64,000 nucleotides of DNA from Candidatus Nomurabacteria bacterium (GTDB taxonomy: Bacteria; Patescibacteriota; Minisyncoccia; Phycocordibacterales; UBA918). The stretch covers positions 221,483-285,482 of the forward strand of contig JACKGG010000001.1 of NCBI GenBank assembly GCA_020632035.1, in the 5' to 3' direction. The translations under genes and the position numbers were made by a program. A model generated the notes under the pieces. The model ran no database searches, was not told the DNA's origin, and worked only from the letters and a program-made list of their open reading frames with translations. This document shows positions 853-63,981 of the stretch, piece by piece. Every line of letters starts with the position of its first letter. Position 1 is the stretch's first letter.

Positions 853-1041
853 ATAGAATATTTATACTAATAACTACTTTCAGTATAGCACTCATGGGAC
901 AAGTGCTGTTTTATTCAACATAAATAGCCGTTTGGCAATATCTTCCGAATAACCAACATTTATCCCAAACCCTTTTGTAGGTATGTTACTATAAAAATAT
1001 ACATATATTAGTTATTAGTAAAATACTTAAGTTAATTAACT

Positions 1042-1293
1042 ATGCAATTTAATGGTGAGAAAGAATTCCACGCAAGACCAATCCAGAAAAAGCAGGGCTG
1101 GCCAACCAAACTGGCCTACAAGCTAGGTGCCAAAGACGATGCCCAAGCTAGCTTATTTATGACTATTTTTGCTGTTGTTGGTTTAATTATTACCTTTTAT
1201 TTGTATAAAGGGATTTTGTTTCCATCTATTGATACAACCATATCACATGAGGAGAAGCTACAGACAGAACTAGACGCTAATCCGTCAAGCTAA
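1042..1293 (+). CDS. Small hypothetical membrane protein
   Basis: 83-aa ORF with a single hydrophobic segment, immediately upstream of the pilin gene and probably co-transcribed with it. Confidence 0.3.
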   Translation: MQFNGEKEFHARPIQKKQGWPTKLAYKLGAKDDAQASLFMTIFAVVGLIITFYLYKGILFPSIDTTISHEEKLQTELDANPSS

Positions 1294-1295
1294 GT

Positions 1296-1856
1296 ATGTT
1301 TAATTTTTACACAGACACAATTTCCAGAAAATTGAATTCAAAAAATTCTGGCTTTACTCTTATTGAGCTGTTAGTTGTCATTGCAATTATTGGTATATTG
1401 TCTTCTGTAGTACTAGCATCATTACAAGATGCAAGGAAGTCTGCGCGCGATAGTACAATCAAACAACAGGTGCGAGCTCTGGCCACAATGGCTGAAATAA
1501 TCTACAACGAACAGCAAACTTTTGATGAGGTTAATACCCGGTGCTACGGCGACGGTTCTGGGGGTTGTTTGACTTGTGACGATGCTGCTAGACCTGATTT
1601 TTCCGGACCAAATGGAGCCGAACTATATAAACTATGTAAAGCTATCGAAGAAAATACAACTACCGATGATAACTATATGATCTGGAGGAATAAATGTACG
1701 ACAGAAAATAATTGTTACTCCTTCACCGTACAGCTTAATGACGGAAACTTCTTTTGCGTTGGTGGTAATGGAAAGAACTATGAGGGACCAGCCAACCCAG
1801 TAGGCCCATTAGGTTACCTAGAAGGTCCAGGATGTCGGAATGATCCTCAGAATTAA
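1296..1856 (+). CDS. Type IV pilin-like protein (prepilin N-terminal cleavage/methylation domain)
   Basis: N-terminus has the motif 'GFTLIELLVVIAIIGIL' (class III signal, G-F-T-L-I-E). The C-terminal globular part is Cys-rich. Confidence 0.75.
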   Translation: MFNFYTDTISRKLNSKNSGFTLIELLVVIAIIGILSSVVLASLQDARKSARDSTIKQQVRALATMAEIIYNEQQTFDEVNTRCYGDGSGGCLTCDDAARPDFSGPNGAELYKLCKAIEENTTTDDNYMIWRNKCTTENNCYSFTVQLNDGNFFCVGGNGKNYEGPANPVGPLGYLEGPGCRNDPQN

Positions 1857-1895
1857 AAATGTAAAATTATTCTATAATATTATCTATTACTTTCT

Positions 1896-2531
1896 TTATC
1901 CCCTAAAAGTCGAAGCCGTCACTTCGTCTTTCACGCCGATTTTATCTACCAATACTTGGTGATTGTAGTCGAAGAAGTCTCGAGTGAGTTTGTCATACAT
2001 ACCCACCCGGTACATTAGATCTTCTGAAGACATCGCTGCAAAACGGATTTCAATCCCTACTTCAGCCTCGAGTGAGCGAATGGCTTTTTCCACTTTAGCT
2101 TGGGAAAATTTCTTCATGGACAAGAGTACGTCTAACCTTTGTTCAAAATCTCGCACAAACACACCGGCAATACCGACAAAATCCAATACACCTGCTTGTC
2201 GTAGGTGCTTTAGTAAATTTTTCCCATCGATTGGTGCGGTTTCAAATAGAAAAGTTTGTAATGCTTGGAGTTCCTGAAAATCCTTGTTTAGTACATAGCC
2301 AACCGCTTTCATCTTCTTTGACTTACCCTCCACCTCTATGTACATGGTCTTTTGCTTAATAACACCTGCTTTTTCAAGTGCAGAAATTTCTGTCCGAGCA
2401 GTCCGACGCACCAGCTTAGCTCGACGACTAATATCATCAAAAAGAAATTCCTTAGAAGGATTAAACAAGAAAAATCGGAGGAGTTTTACTCTTGCAGTGC
2501 TACCAAACAGGATTGAAAGTGGGTCTGCCAT
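1896..2531 (-). CDS. Hypothetical protein with N-terminal winged-helix-like region
   Basis: 211-aa ORF with no recognisable catalytic motif. The N-terminal basic/helical segment suggests DNA binding. Confidence 0.35.
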   Translation of the reverse strand: MADPLSILFGSTARVKLLRFFLFNPSKEFLFDDISRRAKLVRRTARTEISALEKAGVIKQKTMYIEVEGKSKKMKAVGYVLNKDFQELQALQTFLFETAPIDGKNLLKHLRQAGVLDFVGIAGVFVRDFEQRLDVLLSMKKFSQAKVEKAIRSLEAEVGIEIRFAAMSSEDLMYRVGMYDKLTRDFFDYNHQVLVDKIGVKDEVTASTFRG

Positions 2532-2606
2532 ACTGTGATTATGAGGCGATTATATCACAAAGGGTCTGTAGACAGCTTTTAAGGAAAATGTCGTAACTGA
2601 CGTAAT

Positions 2607-2645
2607 AAAAAGGCGCGAACCTTAAGGTTCGCGCCTTTTTATTAA
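2607..2645. terminator. Bidirectional rho-independent terminator (stem aggcgcgaacc/ggttcgcgcct)
   Basis: Perfect 11-bp GC-rich stem flanked by an A-run and a T-run. Confidence 0.6.
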
Positions 2646-2799
2646 CTTAAGAGAAACTTATTTCAAAGTAACTTTAGCTCCGTCACAAGTCCTCAGAAAT
2701 ATATTCCTTGCAGTCATTATTTTCTGGGCTCGCGACCCCGCCTCGCGCTATTTCGTCCCCCGGACGAAGCGCTCCGACCCTGGAGCTAAGGTCACACAA

Positions 2800-2830
2800 A
2801 GAAAAAACGGACCGAAGTCCGTTTTTTCTT
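2800..2830 (-). terminator. rplL terminator hairpin (aaaaaacggac..gtccgtttttt)
   Basis: Stem-loop plus U-tract immediately 3' of the rplL stop on the minus strand. Confidence 0.65.
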
Positions 2831-2848
2831 TGTCATAGTGTGTAAACA

Positions 2849-3349
2849 CTATTTCAATGTAACCTTAGCTCCAGCTTCTTCAAGCTTAGCCTTTAGTGCT
2901 TCTGCATCTTCTTTCTTAAGGTTTTCCTTAACAACAGCAGGAGCTCCGTCAACCATTTCCTTTGCTTCCTTTAGTCCTAGACCACAAGCTTCCTTAACAG
3001 CCTTGATAACCGCAATCTTTTGCGCACCAGCTTCTGTTAGTTCTACTGTGAATTCTGATTGCTCTTCACCACCAGCGTCTCCACCAGCAGCTGGACCTGC
3101 TACTGCTACTGCAGAAGCTGATACTCCGAATCGCTTTTCAAGAACCTTAACTAGTTCATGTAGTTGTAGTACTGACATTTCTTCAACTTGCTCTACAAGC
3201 TTCTTGAATTCTGCTGGTACTTCTACTGTCTCATCAGCATCTGATGCTTTTTCTTCTACTGCCGGAGCAGCTTCTTCCTTAGTTTCTTCAACCGCTACTT
3301 CTGGAGTCGCAGTTTCTTCTACTGCTACGTCTTTTGTTTCTTCTGACAT
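2849..3349 (-). CDS. rplL: 50S ribosomal protein L7/L12 with an approximately 45-aa acidic N-terminal extension
   Basis: Translation has the motif '[20 protein letters not shown]...[15 protein letters not shown]...' and is colinear with bacterial L12. The extra Glu/Val/Ala-rich N-terminus has no internal alternative start codon. Confidence 0.93.
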
Positions 3350-58040: not shown

Positions 58041-58442
58041 ATCAATCTTTATAAGCGTTGTTTATAAGTAACTTGATTTAGTAGATTGCGTGCAGACGTA
58101 ATTGGTGGAAGAGTTTCTATCTTTGTTGAGATAGTCAATTAGGTCTAGGCGCAATCTGGGTCGCGACAAACACACCACCATTAAGAAATGGCGACTGGCT
58201 CTTCAGTGAGAGGAGCGTGTGTCTTACCTCCGACACACGACTACTTCGTGTGATGTATTCATATTACCACCTATCTGATAACCTCACTTTCTGCGGAGTC
58301 TTTAAAAACAAGGCTATTTTATATTTTTATGGCCCCAGACTGTGGATAACTATCGAACAGTGAAAGTAGAAATCAATAATCAGCTTTTGCCAATATATAC
58401 AAGCATTTATTTTTATTTCCCGATAAGGTATTTTCTTGACAA

Positions 58443-58479
58443 AATAAAAGAGCCGACCCCTTTGGGGCCGGCTCTTTAT
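58443..58479. terminator. Terminator ataaaagagccgacccc-ttt-ggggccggctctttata
   Basis: GC stem with AT-rich flanks, 3' of mscL. Confidence 0.6.
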
Positions 58480-58489
58480 ATTTAAAAAA

Positions 58490-58885
58490 CTATTTTTTTA
58501 CCGAATCTCTAATCTCTCGCAATAGTTTTACTTCTTCTGACGGTTCAGCTGGCTTCTCTTCTTTGACCTCCTCCTCTTTTTTATCCAAGGCGTCCTTTGC
58601 CTTATTAATGCCTTTCACTACCATAAAGATAACTAAAGCAACAATTAAGAAGTCAATTACCGATTGGATGAACACACCATAGGTAATTTCGGCATCATCT
58701 ACCATGTAAGCCATACCAGAAAAATCAATTCCACCCATGATCAAGCCAATAATCGGAGTGATGATGTTTGCTACTAGTGAGGAGACGATATTTCCAAAAG
58801 CTGTTCCGATAACTACCGCTACTGCCAAGTCAATCACATTACCCTTCATGGCAAAGGCCTTAAATTCTGCAACAAATCCTTTCAT
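58490..58885 (-). CDS. mscL: Large-conductance mechanosensitive channel
   Basis: '[40 protein letters not shown]' is an MscL TM1 signature. Confidence 0.9.
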
Positions 58886-59106
58886 ACAAAAATCTTAATT
58901 AAAAAATAAATCTAGCTAAGTAAAAACCAATTCCTGCACCTAAAAAAAGCATGAAAGTGAGGGCTACCATTAAGAATGACTGGTCCATAGGTATATTATA
59001 TAGTATAAGAAACAAAAACATTTTTAGCTCTCGACTTTTTGCTAAAAAATAGGTATAAATGTACCCACGACGGCGGGATTTTCTCCGAAAATCCCGCCTG
59101 AAACAT

Positions 59107-59180
59107 GGCGGCTATAGTATAACGGTTAGTGCATCGGTTTGTGGTACCGATAGTTCGGGTTCGATTCCCGGTAGCCGCCC
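59107..59180 (+). tRNA. tRNA-His (anticodon GTG) with encoded G-1
   Basis: Folded by hand: acceptor GCGGCUA/UAGCCGC, D-stem GUAU/GUGC, anticodon stem UCGGU/ACCGA with loop UUGUGGU (GUG), T-arm UCGGG-UUCGAUU-CCCGG, and an extra 5' G opposite discriminator C73. CCA is not encoded. Confidence 0.85.
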
Positions 59181-59377
59181 AAAATTCAGAAACTCCTTCG
59201 GGAGTTTTTGTGTTTTGGGTGGCTAGAAAGTAAACTGCTTTGCTCGCGTCGGGAATCGAAGGCCACAGGTATGTTTTTATTTCCTTTCCTAGAAATAAAA
59301 ACAGCCGAGGCGGGGTCGAGAACACTTGGTAGATTTGGAGTTGTAGACGAACAATATGCTTAGTAACTCGTGACCGA
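59176..59377. repeat. 202-bp direct repeat, left copy (DR-L), starting inside the tRNA-His 3' end
   Basis: 100% identical to 62151..62352. Contains a terminator-like hairpin aaactcc-ttcg-ggagttt. It is followed at 59384-59397 by a second copy of the tRNA 3'-end motif cccggtagTcgccc. Confidence 0.9.
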
Positions 59378-59542
59378 TTCCTTCCCGGTAGTCGCCCATT
59401 TTAAGAAGCTCTATTTGAAAACGTATTTTAGGGTATTTTTTTAGTGTCTACCAGACCTAGTGGAACCAAAGCAATGTTCTATTGAAAAATAGAATTATTT
59501 GTGGCATTGTGCAACCAGTAGAAACCCTGTCTGGAGGCTTGT

Positions 59543-60103
59543 ATGCTGACAATCTTCATAAGTCCTCACAATCATCAAATTACTACCGCTGATGGTCAAA
59601 CTATGATTGTCAAAGGAATGTTTTTGAGAGAGGCTGGTGGTTTTGTTAGTCTGTTTGACTACCAGCCACCAAAAGACCTAAACGATGTGCAGATTGTATT
59701 GGTAAGGAAATACAGGAAAAACAAAATTCTGTCACTGCCTACTGATTTGAAACAAGCGATATTGTCTTTCTTGCGTGACCATCACGCTCAGATTGATATG
59801 TCATTTGACTGCTATGCGTTTGCTAACCTGGTGAAAGGGGTAGAAGTTCACAAAGTTCCTTACATGATTGCTTTCTGGGAACGAAAGAAAAAGCCATGGC
59901 TACCACAGCCTGGCTCGGTTGTCTTCTACGGCACAGGAGAAACTCAATTTCACCACGCTGCTATCTATCTTGGTGCTGGTCTGTATATTTCGGTATATGG
60001 TGCTGGCGGTAACCTGGAGATAGCAACTCACCGAAATATGATGCGAGACTATCGTGCAAAACACGCTTGTCTGGCAGAACCACTAGAGGAGCCACTCGTA
60101 TGA
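59543..60103 (+). CDS. NlpC/P60-like (papain-fold) cysteine peptidase/amidase
   Basis: Cys in 'FDCYAFANLV' and His in 'GSVVFYGTGETQFHHAAIYLGAG', ordered and spaced as in NlpC/P60. Confidence 0.5.
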   Translation: MLTIFISPHNHQITTADGQTMIVKGMFLREAGGFVSLFDYQPPKDLNDVQIVLVRKYRKNKILSLPTDLKQAILSFLRDHHAQIDMSFDCYAFANLVKGVEVHKVPYMIAFWERKKKPWLPQPGSVVFYGTGETQFHHAAIYLGAGLYISVYGAGGNLEIATHRNMMRDYRAKHACLAEPLEEPLV

Positions 60104-60684
60104 GCTTATTTGAAGGTTATAACCTTGAAAACTGTGTTAGCCCTGACGAGTGTGGCTACCGCTGGATGAAAGAAGGTCTACCTGACCAAGACTTCTTGCG
60201 GACACGTTGGAGGTTGCGACGCACTCTCCCAACGGCGCAAGAACATCTCCAGCGTCACGCTACCGACTTTCCTTGGGGTGAACTTTGTCTGCAACATGGA
60301 CAAGTCAGTAAACCGCCATCATATCGGACCAATATCACAATGGTTAAACGTGGAGGCTTCCTTGAACCTGGTCACTGCTTCCGCAACTCTCTGAGAGCAG
60401 TGCAACGCTGGAAGGAAAAACCTCCTGAGTGGGCTGAAGGTAAGCTGATTACGTATGTTAAAGGTCTGGCCCTTGACCCTACAGGTATCTTTCTTCACGG
60501 ATGGATTGACGTTGACGGACAAGCGGTTGACCTGACGTTCATGCGTGCACACATGACCACCTACTTCGGTGTTCGGTTTGAACCTGATTGGGCAATTGAA
60601 ACTTGCAGGCAAATCAACAAATACGGCATCTTCCATACTTGGGAGAAAAGCCAACCATTGCTTGAAGAAAAACTGGCAGCTTAG
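60101..60684 (+). CDS. Hypothetical protein (translationally coupled to the upstream NlpC/P60 gene)
   Basis: The start ATG overlaps the upstream stop (gtATGAgc). 194 aa, Trp/Arg-rich, no recognisable motif. The ORF track's longer version (from 60067) overlaps the upstream gene by 37 nt. Confidence 0.4.
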
Positions 60685-60732
60685 CTGTCTTTACCACCCA
60701 TCCGTGCAAACGGGAGGGTGGCTTTTTCTTTT

Positions 60733-60850
60733 CCCTATCGACCCAGTGGAACCACTTTCTTCCCTCTCAACTGAAACAAACCCTTGCGTCGCTTAACCAA
60801 TCAAGACAAAGCTCTTCCAATTGGTTCCACCCCAGGGTTGGTAGCCGCCC
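60733..60850. repeat. Cassette-boundary repeat A (about 118 bp), with inverted ends agtggaacca ... tggttccacc, ending in a tRNA-3'-like ggtagccgccca
   Basis: About 85% identical to repeat B at 62050..62156. The opener motif tagtggaacca also occurs at 59457. Confidence 0.7.
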
Positions 60851-60928
60851 AAAGTATAGACAAATATACTTTTTGTTGTATTATTATATCTAGCAACCCG
60901 TACATCTACTTAAACAAGGAGGTGTCTA

Positions 60929-61504
60929 ATGCAGACGCTTGTAATTATCACTGGCACCTCAGGTGCTGGTAAGACACTTCAACTTGAGCTGTTGGAACAA
61001 CATTATGGACAAGGGCGAGTACTGACTATTGCTACTCGTGCGAAAAGAAATGGTGAGGCTGGCAATGCCTACCACTTTGTCAGCGATGAACAACTTTCAG
61101 AAATGGAATCGCGCAACGAAACCATTTGGGTTATTGGTCGATATGGCAGTCGTTATTCCATCACGGAGCAAGCGATTCGAGAACCTTTACGAAAAAATAA
61201 TGGTCTGGCGTTTGTGGCAATCACGCCCGATTACCATGCCTTCTTGGCTCAATGGTGTGAGAGACACAATATCTCACCAATCAACATCCACCTGATTGCT
61301 CCTGGTCCTGATGAACAAAGACGGCGCCTGCAAGCACGTGACGGTAGCTTCAGCCTCGAACGTGTGGAAGCAAACACCAAATTCGAAACTGATGCTCAGA
61401 AGGCAGCAGAAATTGTCACGCTTCACTTCATCGAGCAGGCCCAACCAGAAAAGATGTTCGCCAAGCTGTGTGAATTGATAGACTCCGCCCGCACCCCGAG
61501 CTAA
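60929..61504 (+). CDS. Guanylate-kinase-family P-loop kinase (Gmk/PhnN-like)
   Basis: 'VIITGTSGAGKTL' P-loop and '..NAYHFVSDEQ..' as in the Gmk family. Confidence 0.55.
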   Translation: MQTLVIITGTSGAGKTLQLELLEQHYGQGRVLTIATRAKRNGEAGNAYHFVSDEQLSEMESRNETIWVIGRYGSRYSITEQAIREPLRKNNGLAFVAITPDYHAFLAQWCERHNISPINIHLIAPGPDEQRRRLQARDGSFSLERVEANTKFETDAQKAAEIVTLHFIEQAQPEKMFAKLCELIDSARTPS

Positions 61505-61556
61505 GGAAAACGCCCTGCGTTCCCTGCTAGCTCGGGGCGTTTTTTATTTCATAATT

Positions 61557-61991
61557 ATGAGTACAATAATGACTATGACAGATATACAAATACCACGAGT
61601 TGGCGTTGGTCTCATTATCCGCCGAGATAATAAAATTCTACTCGGTAAACGAATGAATACCCATGGTGCCGAAACCTGGAGCCCGCCAGGAGGTCACCTA
61701 GAGTTCATGGAGACAATTGAAGACTGTGCAAAACGTGAAGCTATGGAAGAGACGGGTTGTGTCGTTACTAATATTCAACCACCAGTTTTTACCGAAGAAT
61801 TTTATCCCGAGCTAGACAAACACTACATAAACTTAATGCTTACTGCAGACTGGTTAAGTAACGAACCTACAGTATTAGAACCTCACAAATGCGAGAGTTG
61901 GGAATGGTTTGCATGGGATGAGTTACCATCTCCGCTTTTTCTTCCACTCCAAAATCACATCAATCAAGGATATACTCCTTTTCCTAAATAA
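61557..61991 (+). CDS. NUDIX hydrolase
   Basis: Nudix box 'GGHLEFMETIEDCAKREAMEETGCVV' (GX5EX7REUXEEXGU). Confidence 0.85.
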   Translation: MSTIMTMTDIQIPRVGVGLIIRRDNKILLGKRMNTHGAETWSPPGGHLEFMETIEDCAKREAMEETGCVVTNIQPPVFTEEFYPELDKHYINLMLTADWLSNEPTVLEPHKCESWEWFAWDELPSPLFLPLQNHINQGYTPFPK

Positions 61992-62049
61992 ATCATGTAA
62001 CTTAGCAAAATACTCATCATTTACGCACGGGTATCTGAGCCTACCGAAC

Positions 62050-62156
62050 TAGTGGAACCACTTTCTTCCCTATCACCAAAACAAACCCTTGCGTCGCTTA
62101 ACCAAGTAAGACACAGCTCTTCAAGTTGGTTCCACCCGAGGGTCGGTAGTCGCCCA
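62050..62156. repeat. Cassette-boundary repeat B (partner of 60733..60850), ending in ggtagtcgccca and abutting DR-R
   Basis: Inspection shows 'ctagtggaaccactttcttccct...ttggttccacccgagggtcggtagtcgccca'. Confidence 0.7.
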
Positions 62157-62352
62157 AAATTCAGAAACTCCTTCGGGAGTTTTTGTGTTTTGGGTGGCTA
62201 GAAAGTAAACTGCTTTGCTCGCGTCGGGAATCGAAGGCCACAGGTATGTTTTTATTTCCTTTCCTAGAAATAAAAACAGCCGAGGCGGGGTCGAGAACAC
62301 TTGGTAGATTTGGAGTTGTAGACGAACAATATGCTTAGTAACTCGTGACCGA
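62151..62352. repeat. 202-bp direct repeat, right copy (DR-R)
   Basis: Identical to 59176..59377. It is followed at 62357-62370 by an exact cccggtagccgccc tRNA-3' motif. Confidence 0.9.
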
Positions 62353-62520
62353 ACTTCCCGGTAGCCGCCCTAAAGCTTTTCGCAACCTAAACTTATCCCC
62401 GTGGTACTACGTCTAAAAGATACCTATTGCCTATGGCAAGATTATTTAACACACTTTCCCAAACAAAATCGTTATACACTCGGTAACAGAATTGCTTTTT
62501 ATGGTGCTTTATAAAAAGCT

Positions 62521-63438
62521 CTAGGAACCTTTTTTAGAAAACACACTGTTGACTGGAGTTTTCAGCTGTACTGTTCCTGATTCGTCCGGCAATGGTAGGT
62601 TACCTCCGCGCATATTTACCTGAATTGAAGGAATGATCAACTTTGGCATGCCAAGTTGAGCATCTCGTTCTTCTCTCATTTTTTTGAATCGGTCTTTTTC
62701 GACACCTTCCTTTATATGTATGTTTTGCTTCTTTTGTTCACCAATGGTCGTTTCCCAAATATACTCAGTCCTCCCTTCTGGCAAATAGTCATGGCACATA
62801 AACATCCTCATACTTTCCGGCAAAGCGAAGATTTTTTGGGTTGATTCGTACATTATTTCAGCATTACCACCCGGGAAGTCACATCTAGCAGTACCAAAGT
62901 CTGGCATAAACATAGTATCTCCAGCAAAAACAGCGTCTCCTATTACATAGACCATGTCCGCTGGTGTGTGACCTGGAGTGTGAATTACTTTAGCTGGTAT
63001 CTCTCCCAAGAAAAAAGTGTCACCATCGTTCCATAATTGGTCAAACTGACTACCGTCTCGCTGAAACTCTGTTCCTTCATTAAAAACTTTTCCAAAAATA
63101 TTCTGTACATCGACAATATACTTTCCAATTGCCATGGTTCCGCCCAGTTTCTCCTTCAGGTAAGGGGCGGCAGAAAGGTGGTCAGCATGTACGTGGGTCT
63201 CTAATATCCATTCCACCTTGTATCCTTTCCCTGTTACAAACTCAATTATCGCATCAGCGTTTTCAAAGAAAAGTGTGGCTCCGTTTGGCTCATAATCCAT
63301 AACACTGTCTATAACGGCGCACTGTTTACTATTAGGGTCTGCCACCACATAACTTATCGTATTGGTTCGTTCATCAAAGAAACCTTGGACCTCCGGCTTA
63401 TGGTTTAGAAATTTTGAGTAGTCTATATTATTTTCCAT
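62521..63438 (-). CDS. Metallo-beta-lactamase-fold hydrolase (glyoxalase II / ETHE1-like)
   Basis: 'ETHVHADHLS' (HxHxDH), '..IHTPGHTPADMVY' and '..AGDTMF' metal-ligand motifs. Confidence 0.75.
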   Translation of the reverse strand: MENNIDYSKFLNHKPEVQGFFDERTNTISYVVADPNSKQCAVIDSVMDYEPNGATLFFENADAIIEFVTGKGYKVEWILETHVHADHLSAAPYLKEKLGGTMAIGKYIVDVQNIFGKVFNEGTEFQRDGSQFDQLWNDGDTFFLGEIPAKVIHTPGHTPADMVYVIGDAVFAGDTMFMPDFGTARCDFPGGNAEIMYESTQKIFALPESMRMFMCHDYLPEGRTEYIWETTIGEQKKQNIHIKEGVEKDRFKKMREERDAQLGMPKLIIPSIQVNMRGGNLPLPDESGTVQLKTPVNSVFSKKGS

Positions 63439-63450
63439 GTATATTTTGAA

Positions 63451-63981
63451 TTAATTTCTGCCTTTTACCTGACCTCCGCCCTGCTTCTGCGCGCTACCGC
63501 GCTCAACGTCGGAACTAATTATCGCATCGAAATCTGCTTGAGAAATAAATTCTGGATCATAGTTACTACCTGTTTCGTTTAACAACTGCCGATTAAATGC
63601 CCTAAGGTGATTCCTCGAGCTACGTTGAAGCGACTGGTAGACCGTTTTAATATCGTAATTTTCTGTCTTAGCCAAATTGATGGATAGATCACGGATATCT
63701 AAGTCTTCAATTTTTGCCCCCACCATAAAGGCGCCTATTTTTGATTCGAAGCCTTCAGCTATAAGTTGGTTGTAGAGATCTTGTAGGGTTACATCACTAA
63801 AGACACCTCTTTCGGTACTAGCTGGATCAGCAATACCATACCGTTGCAATAAAGTCAGCACCGCACCCGTGTGAGTCTGCTCGCTAGCTGAAATATTGTT
63901 AAAGATATTTACTCCCCATTTATCATATAGTGCCAAATAGACATCTCTGGCTAATTTTTCCTCCTCTCTCATAAAGACCAA
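63451..63981 (-). CDS. DUF2202-like ferritin-fold protein (possibly 5'-partial at window edge)
   Basis: 'REEEKLARDVYLALYDKWG' matches the DUF2202 ferritin-like opener. The ORF may extend beyond 64000. Confidence 0.45.
   Translation of the reverse strand: MVFMREEEKLARDVYLALYDKWGVNIFNNISASEQTHTGAVLTLLQRYGIADPASTERGVFSDVTLQDLYNQLIAEGFESKIGAFMVGAKIEDLDIRDLSINLAKTENYDIKTVYQSLQRSSRNHLRAFNRQLLNETGSNYDPEFISQADFDAIISSDVERGSAQKQGGGQVKGRN

Follow-up and report, generated by a model that had tools for sequence, protein, structure and literature searches.

A variable site behind tRNA-His in a Candidatus Nomurabacteria genome: two probable accessory cassettes and a recurrent kinase-Nudix pair

The window analysed here is a stretch of 64,000 nucleotides from the forward strand of contig JACKGG010000001.1 (positions 221,483 to 285,482) of a Candidatus Nomurabacteria bacterium. 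The host genome is of the Patescibacteria, or candidate-phyla-radiation, type and comprises 848 kb in 8 contigs, with a GC content of 0.41. Members of the Patescibacteria are reliant on other cells and have very small genomes, and the ways in which they gain and swap accessory genes are poorly understood. A tRNA-His(GTG) gene at 59108-59180 on the + strand, recognized by ARAGORN and Rfam (tRNA, 59.1 bits), anchors a variable region of this genome, as the original prediction for the stretch had held. The gene order nrdB-mscL-tRNA-His upstream is conserved in the corresponding loci of relatives, and the contents 3' of the tRNA differ genome by genome. Behind the tRNA lie four genes, all on the + strand: g1 (59543-60103, 186 amino acids), g2 (60100-60684, 194 amino acids), g3 (60929-61504, 191 amino acids) and g4 (61557-61991, 144 amino acids). 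The domain assignments made earlier from motifs are borne out by Pfam, where g1 matches NLPC_P60 (27 bits, cut-off 23, E-value 4.5e-6), g3 Guanylate_kin (47.4 bits, cut-off 25.2, E 2.3e-12) and g4 NUDIX (73 bits, cut-off 21.1, E 3e-20). The start codon of g2 overlaps the stop codon of g1 in an ATGA at 60100-60103, an overlap that is kept in a metagenomic relative, L026. The four genes had been proposed to make up one uncharacterized accessory system; they stand instead in two repeat-bounded units with separate histories, and the pairing of the g3 kinase with a Nudix gene is conserved.

At this locus the sequence GGTAGYCGCCC, the 3' end of tRNA-His, is present in five copies, whose last positions are 59180, 59397, 60850, 62155 and 62370; these copies split the DNA into four units in the order X, A, B, X. 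Unit A (59398-60850, 1453 bp) holds g1 and g2, and unit B (60851-62155, 1305 bp) holds g3 and g4. Both are bracketed by a direct repeat of 209 nt (59169-59377 and 62144-62352), in which 208 of the 209 positions are identical. The flanking X modules lie on the + strand at 59181-59397 and 62156-62370. The first contains the terminator hairpin of the tRNA (59187-59210) followed by a folded unit of about 190 nt, with a folding energy for the module of -59.7 kcal/mol (z -2.2), and the second ends in CCCGGTAGCCGCCC. The 5' arm of the X unit is complementary to the tRNA-His 3' end, whereas its 3' end is a repeat of that end (CCCGGTAGTCGCCC). X belongs to a family of folded modules of about 190-220 nt with three hairpins, of which the first (GAAAGCAAACTGCTTTGCTTTC) is conserved, the second has a CCTTTCCTAG loop and the third is long. 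Often, the closing stem of such a module imitates the acceptor and T-arm strand of the immediately preceding tRNA gene. Relatives of X are found behind other tRNAs of the host genome, and many copies occur across the genus; further copies in the host lie at C1:297102-297189, C1:309378-309481, C2:76770-76833, C2:134977-135053 and C7:39425-39514.

The two gene-bearing units are each closed by an imperfect palindrome of about 120 nt, designated Y. Y1 (60734-60850, + strand) closes cassette A and ends in GGTAGCCGCCC, which is the tRNA-His 3' end; Y2 (62040-62155, + strand) closes cassette B, ends in GGTAGTCGCCC and is 87% identical to Y1. Y folds as a long imperfect hairpin. In a comparison of eight copies (five genomes and one metagenome), pairing is seen in 84.8% of the arm cells, and sliding the partner strand gives 49.7% at most. 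Neither X nor Y belongs to an Rfam family, as a scan of 58800-62600 with E-values up to 5 matched the tRNA alone. Cassette A begins with a leader (59398-59542, + strand) that contains a half-site at 59449-59469 (CTACC..GTGGAACCA) of repeat family D5 and a conserved stretch before g1. The last 45 or so nucleotides of this leader show 93% conservation ahead of g1 in L026; at another locus, L025, they immediately precede g2 and show 88% conservation. Directly after Y1 and ahead of g3 stands a promoter-like site on the + strand (60857-60884, TAGACA-16-TATTAT, 10 of 12 positions), which is a consensus match only. Terminator-like hairpins follow the tRNA and g3 in a consensus scan, the latter with a T run (61522-61545, hairpin 61522-61537, + strand) and located between g3 and g4; a further one after g2, at about 60695-60730, is apparent by reading. 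The notion of a single operon-like block is thus replaced by that of two repeat-bounded units, with a promoter-like site and a terminator-like site of their own.

The foreign composition that had been attributed to all four genes holds for two of them only. The GC contents of g2 (0.489) and g3 (0.484) are reached by only 1.7% and 2.1%, respectively, of the 600-nt windows of the genome, but those of g1 (0.435) and g4 (0.411) are ordinary for it (mean 0.414, standard deviation 0.034).

If the four genes acted in one pathway, as an accessory or defense system of peptidase, partner protein, kinase and Nudix hydrolase, they would be expected to recur together, and the original prediction had itself named their never co-occurring elsewhere as grounds for giving it up. 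This is what was found: the four genes stand together at no other locus examined and are consequently not one four-gene system. The search for g1 yielded 13 loci from species genomes and 8 from the genus, 4 of which are shared (identical scores and neighbors), leaving 17 distinct loci; g2, g3 and g4 are absent from the flanks of all of these (1.5-4 kb where the contig allows). There, g1 is usually solitary, and it lies 0.4-0.5 kb behind tRNA-Val or transfer-messenger RNA at two distinct loci and 65 nt behind tRNA-Leu at one. At six other g2 loci there is no g3 or g4, and g1 is present at one only and is broken: L026 has an intact g2 beside a frameshifted g1 without the region of the catalytic cysteine. 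L025 has the same upstream leader followed by g2 and a Y site, without g1; at L027, g2 lies between X-like modules at a contig end, and at L086, g2 again occurs without g1. In a sample of 120 other genomes of the genus, of varying completeness, the g1 family occurs in 8, the g2 family in 3 and both in none. At the present locus g1 and g2 are translationally coupled; at other loci, each is found without the other. What speaks for a single system is that the four genes are adjacent and co-oriented within one repeat-bracketed insertion, and that the same two-cassette arrangement was assembled in an independent sequencing run, in which one contig spans 59360-62186 with one changed letter, so that both cassettes are joined in the same way there. 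Set against this, the two halves are parted by a complete boundary site as well as by a promoter-like site and terminators, and no system in PADLOC matches, leaving the single-system explanation close to refuted.

We read the stretch as two independent two-gene accessory cassettes, with accessory metabolic cargo, in a cassette hot spot behind tRNA-His, and we put the probability of this reading at roughly 0.6. The part of the original prediction that saw the genes as accessory rather than housekeeping cargo at a tRNA-anchored variable site is supported. Y sites occur in 24 of the 120 other genus genomes, in up to three copies that are 1.5-2.2 kb apart, and sites of the Y and X types delimit units of one to three genes behind tRNA-His in related genomes. 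The tRNA-His arrays at L098 and L075 and the Y site at L099 carry Ham1, GNAT, ParE/RelB, a LOG-like protein and unknowns; cargo in the relatives' arrays examined also includes phage GP30.3-like, Phd/MazF and beta-lactamase-fold proteins, ClpP and many unknowns. At the present locus, small repeat-bounded units behind a tRNA would carry enzymes for scavenged goods, that is, nucleotides and peptide or cell wall fragments. The cargo proteins are new members of known folds, in the case of g2 a putative one.

A conserved association at this locus concerns cassette B. The g3 kinase family occurs in 8 of the 120 other genus genomes, with 27-35% identity to g3, and at all eight loci a Pfam-confirmed Nudix gene is found by the kinase, directly adjacent in seven and one gene away in the eighth. 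Including the present locus, the Nudix gene adjoins the kinase or is one gene away in 9 of 9 cases, and in this respect the suggestion that kinase and Nudix recur as a pair has proved correct. The host genome contains eight Nudix matches including g4, or about one gene in 100, which is a high share for a small genome; given this frequency, the adjacency is far beyond chance, even with relatives that are not independent samples. The pair is found behind tRNA-His in two genomes, and in one of these (G349, L079) it has a Y-like end as its boundary. In another genome it lies beside X and Y fragments, and at L082 (G747:C10, about 900-3270) it is placed between nusG and rplK, among the most conserved gene strings of bacteria. 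No close relative of g3 was found in 300 genomes of the order, where the best hits were three weak matches (33-40% identity, E about 1e-11), and none of 400 other class genomes has the family at E<=1e-20, so that the co-occurrence can be counted within the genus only. Likewise, there are only 8 clusters of g3 among 5.8 billion proteins.

The g3 protein is a divergent P-loop kinase of the guanylate kinase fold. It shares with Gmk (PF00625, TIGR03263) the fold, the P-loop, the loop that binds the nucleoside monophosphate (NMP) and a TTRxxRxGE...Y.F region, and the Pfam match covers its full length; it further matches phrog_1815 (5.3e-18) and, among structures in the PDB, the Gmk 3lnc (9.9e-8). 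Unlike Gmk, g3 falls far below the NCBIfam equivalog cut-offs (46.8 versus 160.45 bits for TIGR03263, 47.9 versus 263 bits for NF011325) and has the Nudix neighbor described above. The housekeeping gmk of the host lies on another contig and scores 103.7 bits, and g3 is an additional copy rather than the gmk of this genome. The g4 protein is a Nudix hydrolase that probably belongs to the NUDT15/AtNUDX1/MutT-like group, whose members act on (oxidized or modified) nucleoside triphosphates or on prenyl diphosphates. It has an intact Nudix box, GX5EX7REUXEEXGU (GHLEFMETIEDCAKREAMEETGC in translation), and strong full-length similarity to members of this group (4kyx, 6dby, 5bon; 9.9e-37 to 2.4e-24), with 4kyx at 9.9e-37, AtNUDX1 at about 6e-33 and NUDT15 at about 2e-24; it differs from these enzymes in being carried on a mobile cassette.

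These assignments are consistent with a two-step route for nucleotide salvage or pool editing, which would be the simplest link between the two enzymes of cassette B. The Nudix hydrolase would turn nucleoside triphosphates (NTPs) or nucleoside diphosphates linked to another moiety (NDP-X) into NMPs, and the kinase would re-phosphorylate an NMP. Such a module would be of use to bacteria of this type, which in general depend on scavenged nucleotides and are not known to make them de novo. That cassette B is a salvage or pool-editing module is a proposition to which we give somewhat less than even odds, and several points tell against it. An NTP pyrophosphatase combined with an NMP kinase would run a futile cycle on normal nucleotides. 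In an alignment with the housekeeping gmk, g3 keeps R37, Y48 and Y76, but the Glu and Asp positions, which we take to be the guanine contacts of guanylate kinases, are Trp and Thr/Pro. The substrate of g3 may not be a nucleotide at all, as there is a weak full-length match to PhnN (6.6e-5), and indeed the substrates of both gene pairs of this locus are inferred. The terminator-like site that stands between g3 and g4 and the lack of independence among the related genomes also count on this side, as does the genome G346, where a 90% identical g4 comes after a Y site in a cassette array that has no kinase.

The same pairing could be explained by a conflict module, of the toxin-antitoxin type or directed against phage, with the kinase producing or using up a nucleotide, the Nudix hydrolase reversing or limiting this effect, and neither having a part in salvage. 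The constant company of a Nudix gene at all nine loci would fit such a module, as would the mobile and patchy occurrence of the pair, the switching of the Nudix partner between subfamilies while the kinase stays, the presence of toxin-antitoxin pairs in the hot spots and that of Gabija-like and restriction-modification genes in those of relatives. In addition, g4 matches the single-gene PADLOC candidate PDC-S07 (6.6e-13). The Nudix hydrolase is, however, closest to house-cleaning enzymes, and its relatives keep company with nucleotide metabolism: at L046, L047 and L048, genes about 66% identical to g4 stand among HD phosphohydrolases, and at L048, a CYTH protein, a second Nudix and another P-loop kinase are also near. 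The Nudix gene also occurs alone, though an antitoxin would allow that. Literature searches, which included PMC9503650, brought up no described defense system of kinase and Nudix make-up. A conflict module is accordingly an improbable explanation of the pair, and the kinase family with its Nudix companion is better taken as a lead towards a two-step route from NDP-X or NTP to NMP to NDP, with the conflict module as the minor alternative.

The wider suggestion of a role in phage defense, or in signaling by nicotinamide adenine dinucleotide (NAD) and ADP-ribose, has found nothing in its favor, with g4 being closest to the NUDT15/AtNUDX1/MutT type. The earlier statement that the genes match no named defense or toxin system stands, as no PADLOC-DB 2.0 system was matched: g1 and g2 hit 0 families, and g3 shows only a PtuA P-loop match at 1.5e-4. 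Profiles of g1 and g2 found no relative in viral contigs, and that of g3 only a 17-residue match that was not counted. In phage records, g2 has no match and g3 has only remote N-terminal Gmk matches, with 29-36% identity over at most 51% of the query. The original claim is thus mostly deflated, there being neither a four-gene system nor a sign of defense.

In cassette A, g1 is a predicted thiol hydrolase of the NlpC/P60 fold. A profile search of the PDB finds 4xcm and LytE at about 1e-6, and D89, C90 and H138 are invariant in 25 relatives down to 37% identity. In an AlphaFold2 model (predicted local distance difference test, pLDDT, 92.1), C90 begins a helix (90-98) and H138 lies within a strand (135-144). 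Foldseek matches this model to 7v6t (E 9.8e-4), and a VIA comparison aligns 117 residues with 2evr (Z 7.7, root-mean-square deviation 3.2); 67 chains reach Z>=5, and the 50 matches listed are mostly NlpC/P60 or CHAP-type hydrolases. The protein shares the catalytic fold, with Cys and His in the usual positions, with the NlpC/P60 gamma-D-glutamyl-L-diamino-acid endopeptidases (2evr, 2hbw, 4xcm; MepS; LytE), although identity to the cyanobacterial 2evr and 2hbw is only 15-19%. It differs from them in that the NlpC/P60 domain comprises residues 64-186 only, preceded by a private beta domain of 63 residues that is uncovered by the fold matches, and in that it has no signal or anchoring domain. The g1 family consists of 75 clusters of relatives, all of about 180 amino acids, and is confined to Patescibacteria-type records, where it is widespread (nearest are Nomurabacteria, Kaiserbacteria, Paceibacteria and similar). 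At L034 and L035, in Saccharibacteria and Paceibacteria, relatives of g1 lie inside or beside the ribosomal protein cluster, in the region of rplB, rpsS and rplV.

The second protein of cassette A, g2, has no family match in Pfam, NCBIfam, PHROGs or PADLOC and deserves a family of its own. The start methionine within the ATGA is common to all 13 close relatives. The family is rare, with 13 close clusters, and a profile search yields 116 representatives at E<=1e-3; among the 69 of these that were scanned in Pfam, one has a weak Transglut_core3 match (0.0096) and one has zinc-ribbon matches. A family alignment covers 34 sequences that share as little as 20% identity; C93, H133, W135 and a small number of Gly and Tyr positions do not vary in it, and D144 is kept in at least 90% of the sequences. 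The AlphaFold2 model (pLDDT 90.8) places C93 at the opening of a helix (93-106), H133 on a strand (129-138) and D144 directly after a strand (141-143), suggestive of a Cys93-His133-Asp144 triad. An arrangement of this kind, with the Cys at a helix start and the His and Asp on or after successive strands, is found in NTAQ1/C8orf32 (3c9q), LapG (4fgo), PeiW (8jx4) and TglA (9crn), and the motif H-A-W...D-x-T-W of g2 aligns with TglA. Of the 48 VIA matches at Z>=2 that extend over residues 74-190 or so, most are papain/transglutaminase-like enzymes, including NTAQ1, LapG, PeiW/PeiP, arylamine N-acetyltransferases and protein glutaminase. The remote homology search recommended for this protein has therefore given a one-sided set of weak papain/transglutaminase-like fold matches but no significant profile or fold match. 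With fold evidence of this weakness, our reading is that g2 may be a thiol hydrolase or transferase of the papain/transglutaminase-like superfamily, in its own family and set apart from known members by the lack of significant scores and of a Pfam family, as well as by 70 unmatched N-terminal residues. A protein family that is absent from Pfam and keeps a Cys-His-Asp triad forms the second lead to emerge from this locus. Its nearest Protein Atlas clusters are unnamed hypothetical proteins, partly viral, and are treated as a lead only.

No hydrophobic signal-like segment is apparent by reading at the N-terminus of g1, the export and wall-binding features of wall hydrolases being absent, so that the protein is probably cytoplasmic. 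Cassette A could then encode two cytoplasmic papain-type thiol hydrolases that would cut amide or isopeptide bonds of small peptides, for instance cell-wall-derived ones, inside the cell. A role in degrading peptides that contain gamma-glutamyl or isopeptide bonds, whether scavenged or recycled, is tentatively proposed on this basis, and we hold it with less assurance than the salvage role of cassette B. It has to contend with the fact that g1 bears no signal while NlpC/P60 enzymes are mostly secreted wall hydrolases, and with the scores of g2, for which Foldseek finds nothing in the PDB at E<=1e-3, the best VIA match has a weak Z of 4.7 and the best hit of the PDB profile search, 9crn, is not significant (E 0.57).

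NlpC/P60 domains are also known from endolysins, tail lysins and interbacterial toxins, and structures of this sort are among the fold matches (8tw1, 9euf, 9l5u, 7pzt). Together with a weak match to a PHROG tail protein (0.0013) and the translational coupling of the two genes, this raises the idea that g1 and g2 are a toxin-immunity pair, an effector pair against the wall of another cell, or a leftover phage lysis module. Such an idea is hard to reconcile with the occurrence of each gene alone, by which neither depends on the other and an obligate toxin-antitoxin pairing is not seen, and a catalytic-looking triad kept throughout the g2 family is unexpected for an immunity protein. By reading, neither a signal-like segment nor a nearby secretion gene is present, and relatives are absent from the viral contigs and phage records searched. 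We consider a toxin, effector or lysis function very unlikely, and the breakdown of small peptides remains the preferred, if tentative, reading of cassette A.

How such units reach the site behind tRNA-His bears on the nature of the whole locus. The arrangement resembles integron arrays and clusters of attC sites lacking integrases (CALINs) in that small units, each with one or a few genes and with an imperfect palindrome of about 120 nt and conserved end as its closing site, lie stacked at a single locus, with no recombinase beside the array, as in CALINs. The mixed cargo, which includes toxin-antitoxin pairs, acetyltransferases and unknowns, is a further likeness, and integron cassettes carry a similar spectrum. 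In contrast to integrons, there is no IntI-type integrase nearby, and matches to PF00589 lie on other contigs. In contrast to attC, the sites have by reading no GTTRRRY core, their conserved end being GGTAGYCGCCC, the end of tRNA-His. The site end copies the tRNA 3' end and the array begins at the tRNA gene; furthermore, the cassettes have promoter-like and terminator-like sites of their own, and gene orientation varies in relatives. The copying of tRNA ends is not limited to this locus, as for 13 of the 34 tRNAs of the host the last 14 nt are found again, in one to five copies, in the 3.5 kb downstream, compared with 0 of 34 upstream. For tRNA-Lys(TTT), there are five downstream copies of its own end, the first four of which are about 153 nt apart.

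A second point of comparison is provided by the tycheposons of Prochlorococcus, which are reported to build tRNA-proximal additive islands through integrative elements, with partial tRNA repeats (10.1101/2020.12.28.424599). The present locus shares with such islands the streamlined genome, the start at a tRNA 3' end, the repeated partial tRNA ends and the niche or defense cargo; it differs in having units without integrase or replication module that are far smaller (1.3-1.5 kb), and long structured palindromes as boundaries in place of att repeats of about 40 nt. Full-text term searches of the literature, judged by title and the opening of the abstract, found no report of tRNA-linked cassette arrays in Patescibacteria or of a module of Gmk-like kinase and Nudix.

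Alternatively, the island might consist of decayed integrase-borne elements that integrated serially at tRNA-His in the manner of tycheposons, with the repeats as old attachment sites. In two relatives, islands of about 8 kb (L013) and about 11 kb (L014) behind tRNA-His each contain a gene for a large serine recombinase, split in the former and intact in the latter, and partial tRNA repeats flanking stacked elements are a recognized mark of islands of this sort (10.1101/2020.12.28.424599). After these come small units that carry Y sites in the relatives. As for the host, its genome has no match to serine recombinases, and the tyrosine recombinases in it (PF00589) number just two, both on contigs other than that of the island, and neither a recombinase open reading frame nor an integrase fragment is found within the 3.2 kb of 59181-62370. 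Boundaries formed by conserved palindromes of about 120 nt, in a fifth of the other genus genomes sampled (24 of 120) and at a 1.3-2.2 kb spacing in the arrays examined, likewise tell against decayed elements, as do the near-identical X copies. Serial decay is on balance an unlikely origin, although it deserves more weight than any of the rivals considered above.

A slightly better, and still doubtful, account is that the two cassettes belong to an integron-like system of Patescibacteria aimed at tRNA 3' ends. The palindromes of about 120 nt would serve as recombination sites that mimic the local tRNA end, the recombinase would act in trans, encoded elsewhere or in another cell, and the pair of Gmk-like kinase and Nudix hydrolase would be a recurrent cargo module that edits the nucleotide pool. 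The evidence cannot decide whether the units arrived through a trans-acting cassette system on palindromic sites or as integrase-borne leftovers. Two results weaken the case for a site-specific cassette system. Compensatory change in the Y arms is not above that of shuffles (157 of 500), which makes the Y structure plausible but not proven, and no credible excised, circular or empty form was seen in the sequencing runs compared with the stretch. A joint of 59180 to 62152, supported by one contig with 27 letters on the shorter side, was considered as an empty site and rejected, because it falls within the 209-nt repeat with its register off by 4 bases. The runs X6 to X8, which cover the stretch in part, were similarly rejected as cassette-less variants, being low-depth fragments.

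The stretch itself has been sequenced repeatedly. At least 92% of the sampled words are present in five runs, which come from four activated-sludge or wastewater studies (2015-2021); one of these runs may be the source sample, and none of the runs listed as containing the stretch is an RNA run. The island of L014 (G001:C63, 2520-13157) contains, apart from its serine recombinase, a pair of Gabija-like OLD-ATPase and UvrD, and an XhoI endonuclease with an Eco57I-type methylase, followed by an APH-family kinase, a zeta-toxin-like kinase and a Fic protein. Beyond X copy 2 in the present window, genes for a metallo-beta-lactamase-fold protein and a ferritin-like protein (DUF2202-type by look) occupy 62521-63981. 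These two genes have no counterpart in the tRNA-His loci of relatives that were examined, and the variable region may therefore reach beyond 62370, its far end being undefined. In run X3, a related strain is about 10 times more common across 58400-59135 (depth 255 versus 25) and has 40 of 736 letters changed in the mscL flank; its contig stops inside tRNA-His, which indicates that the sequence after the tRNA differs between co-existing strains. Finally, in a contig of run X6 that ends at 59181, the tRNA-His end runs straight into a sequence resembling the beginning of cassette A (GATTAAGAAGCTATATTT...), with no X module between them.

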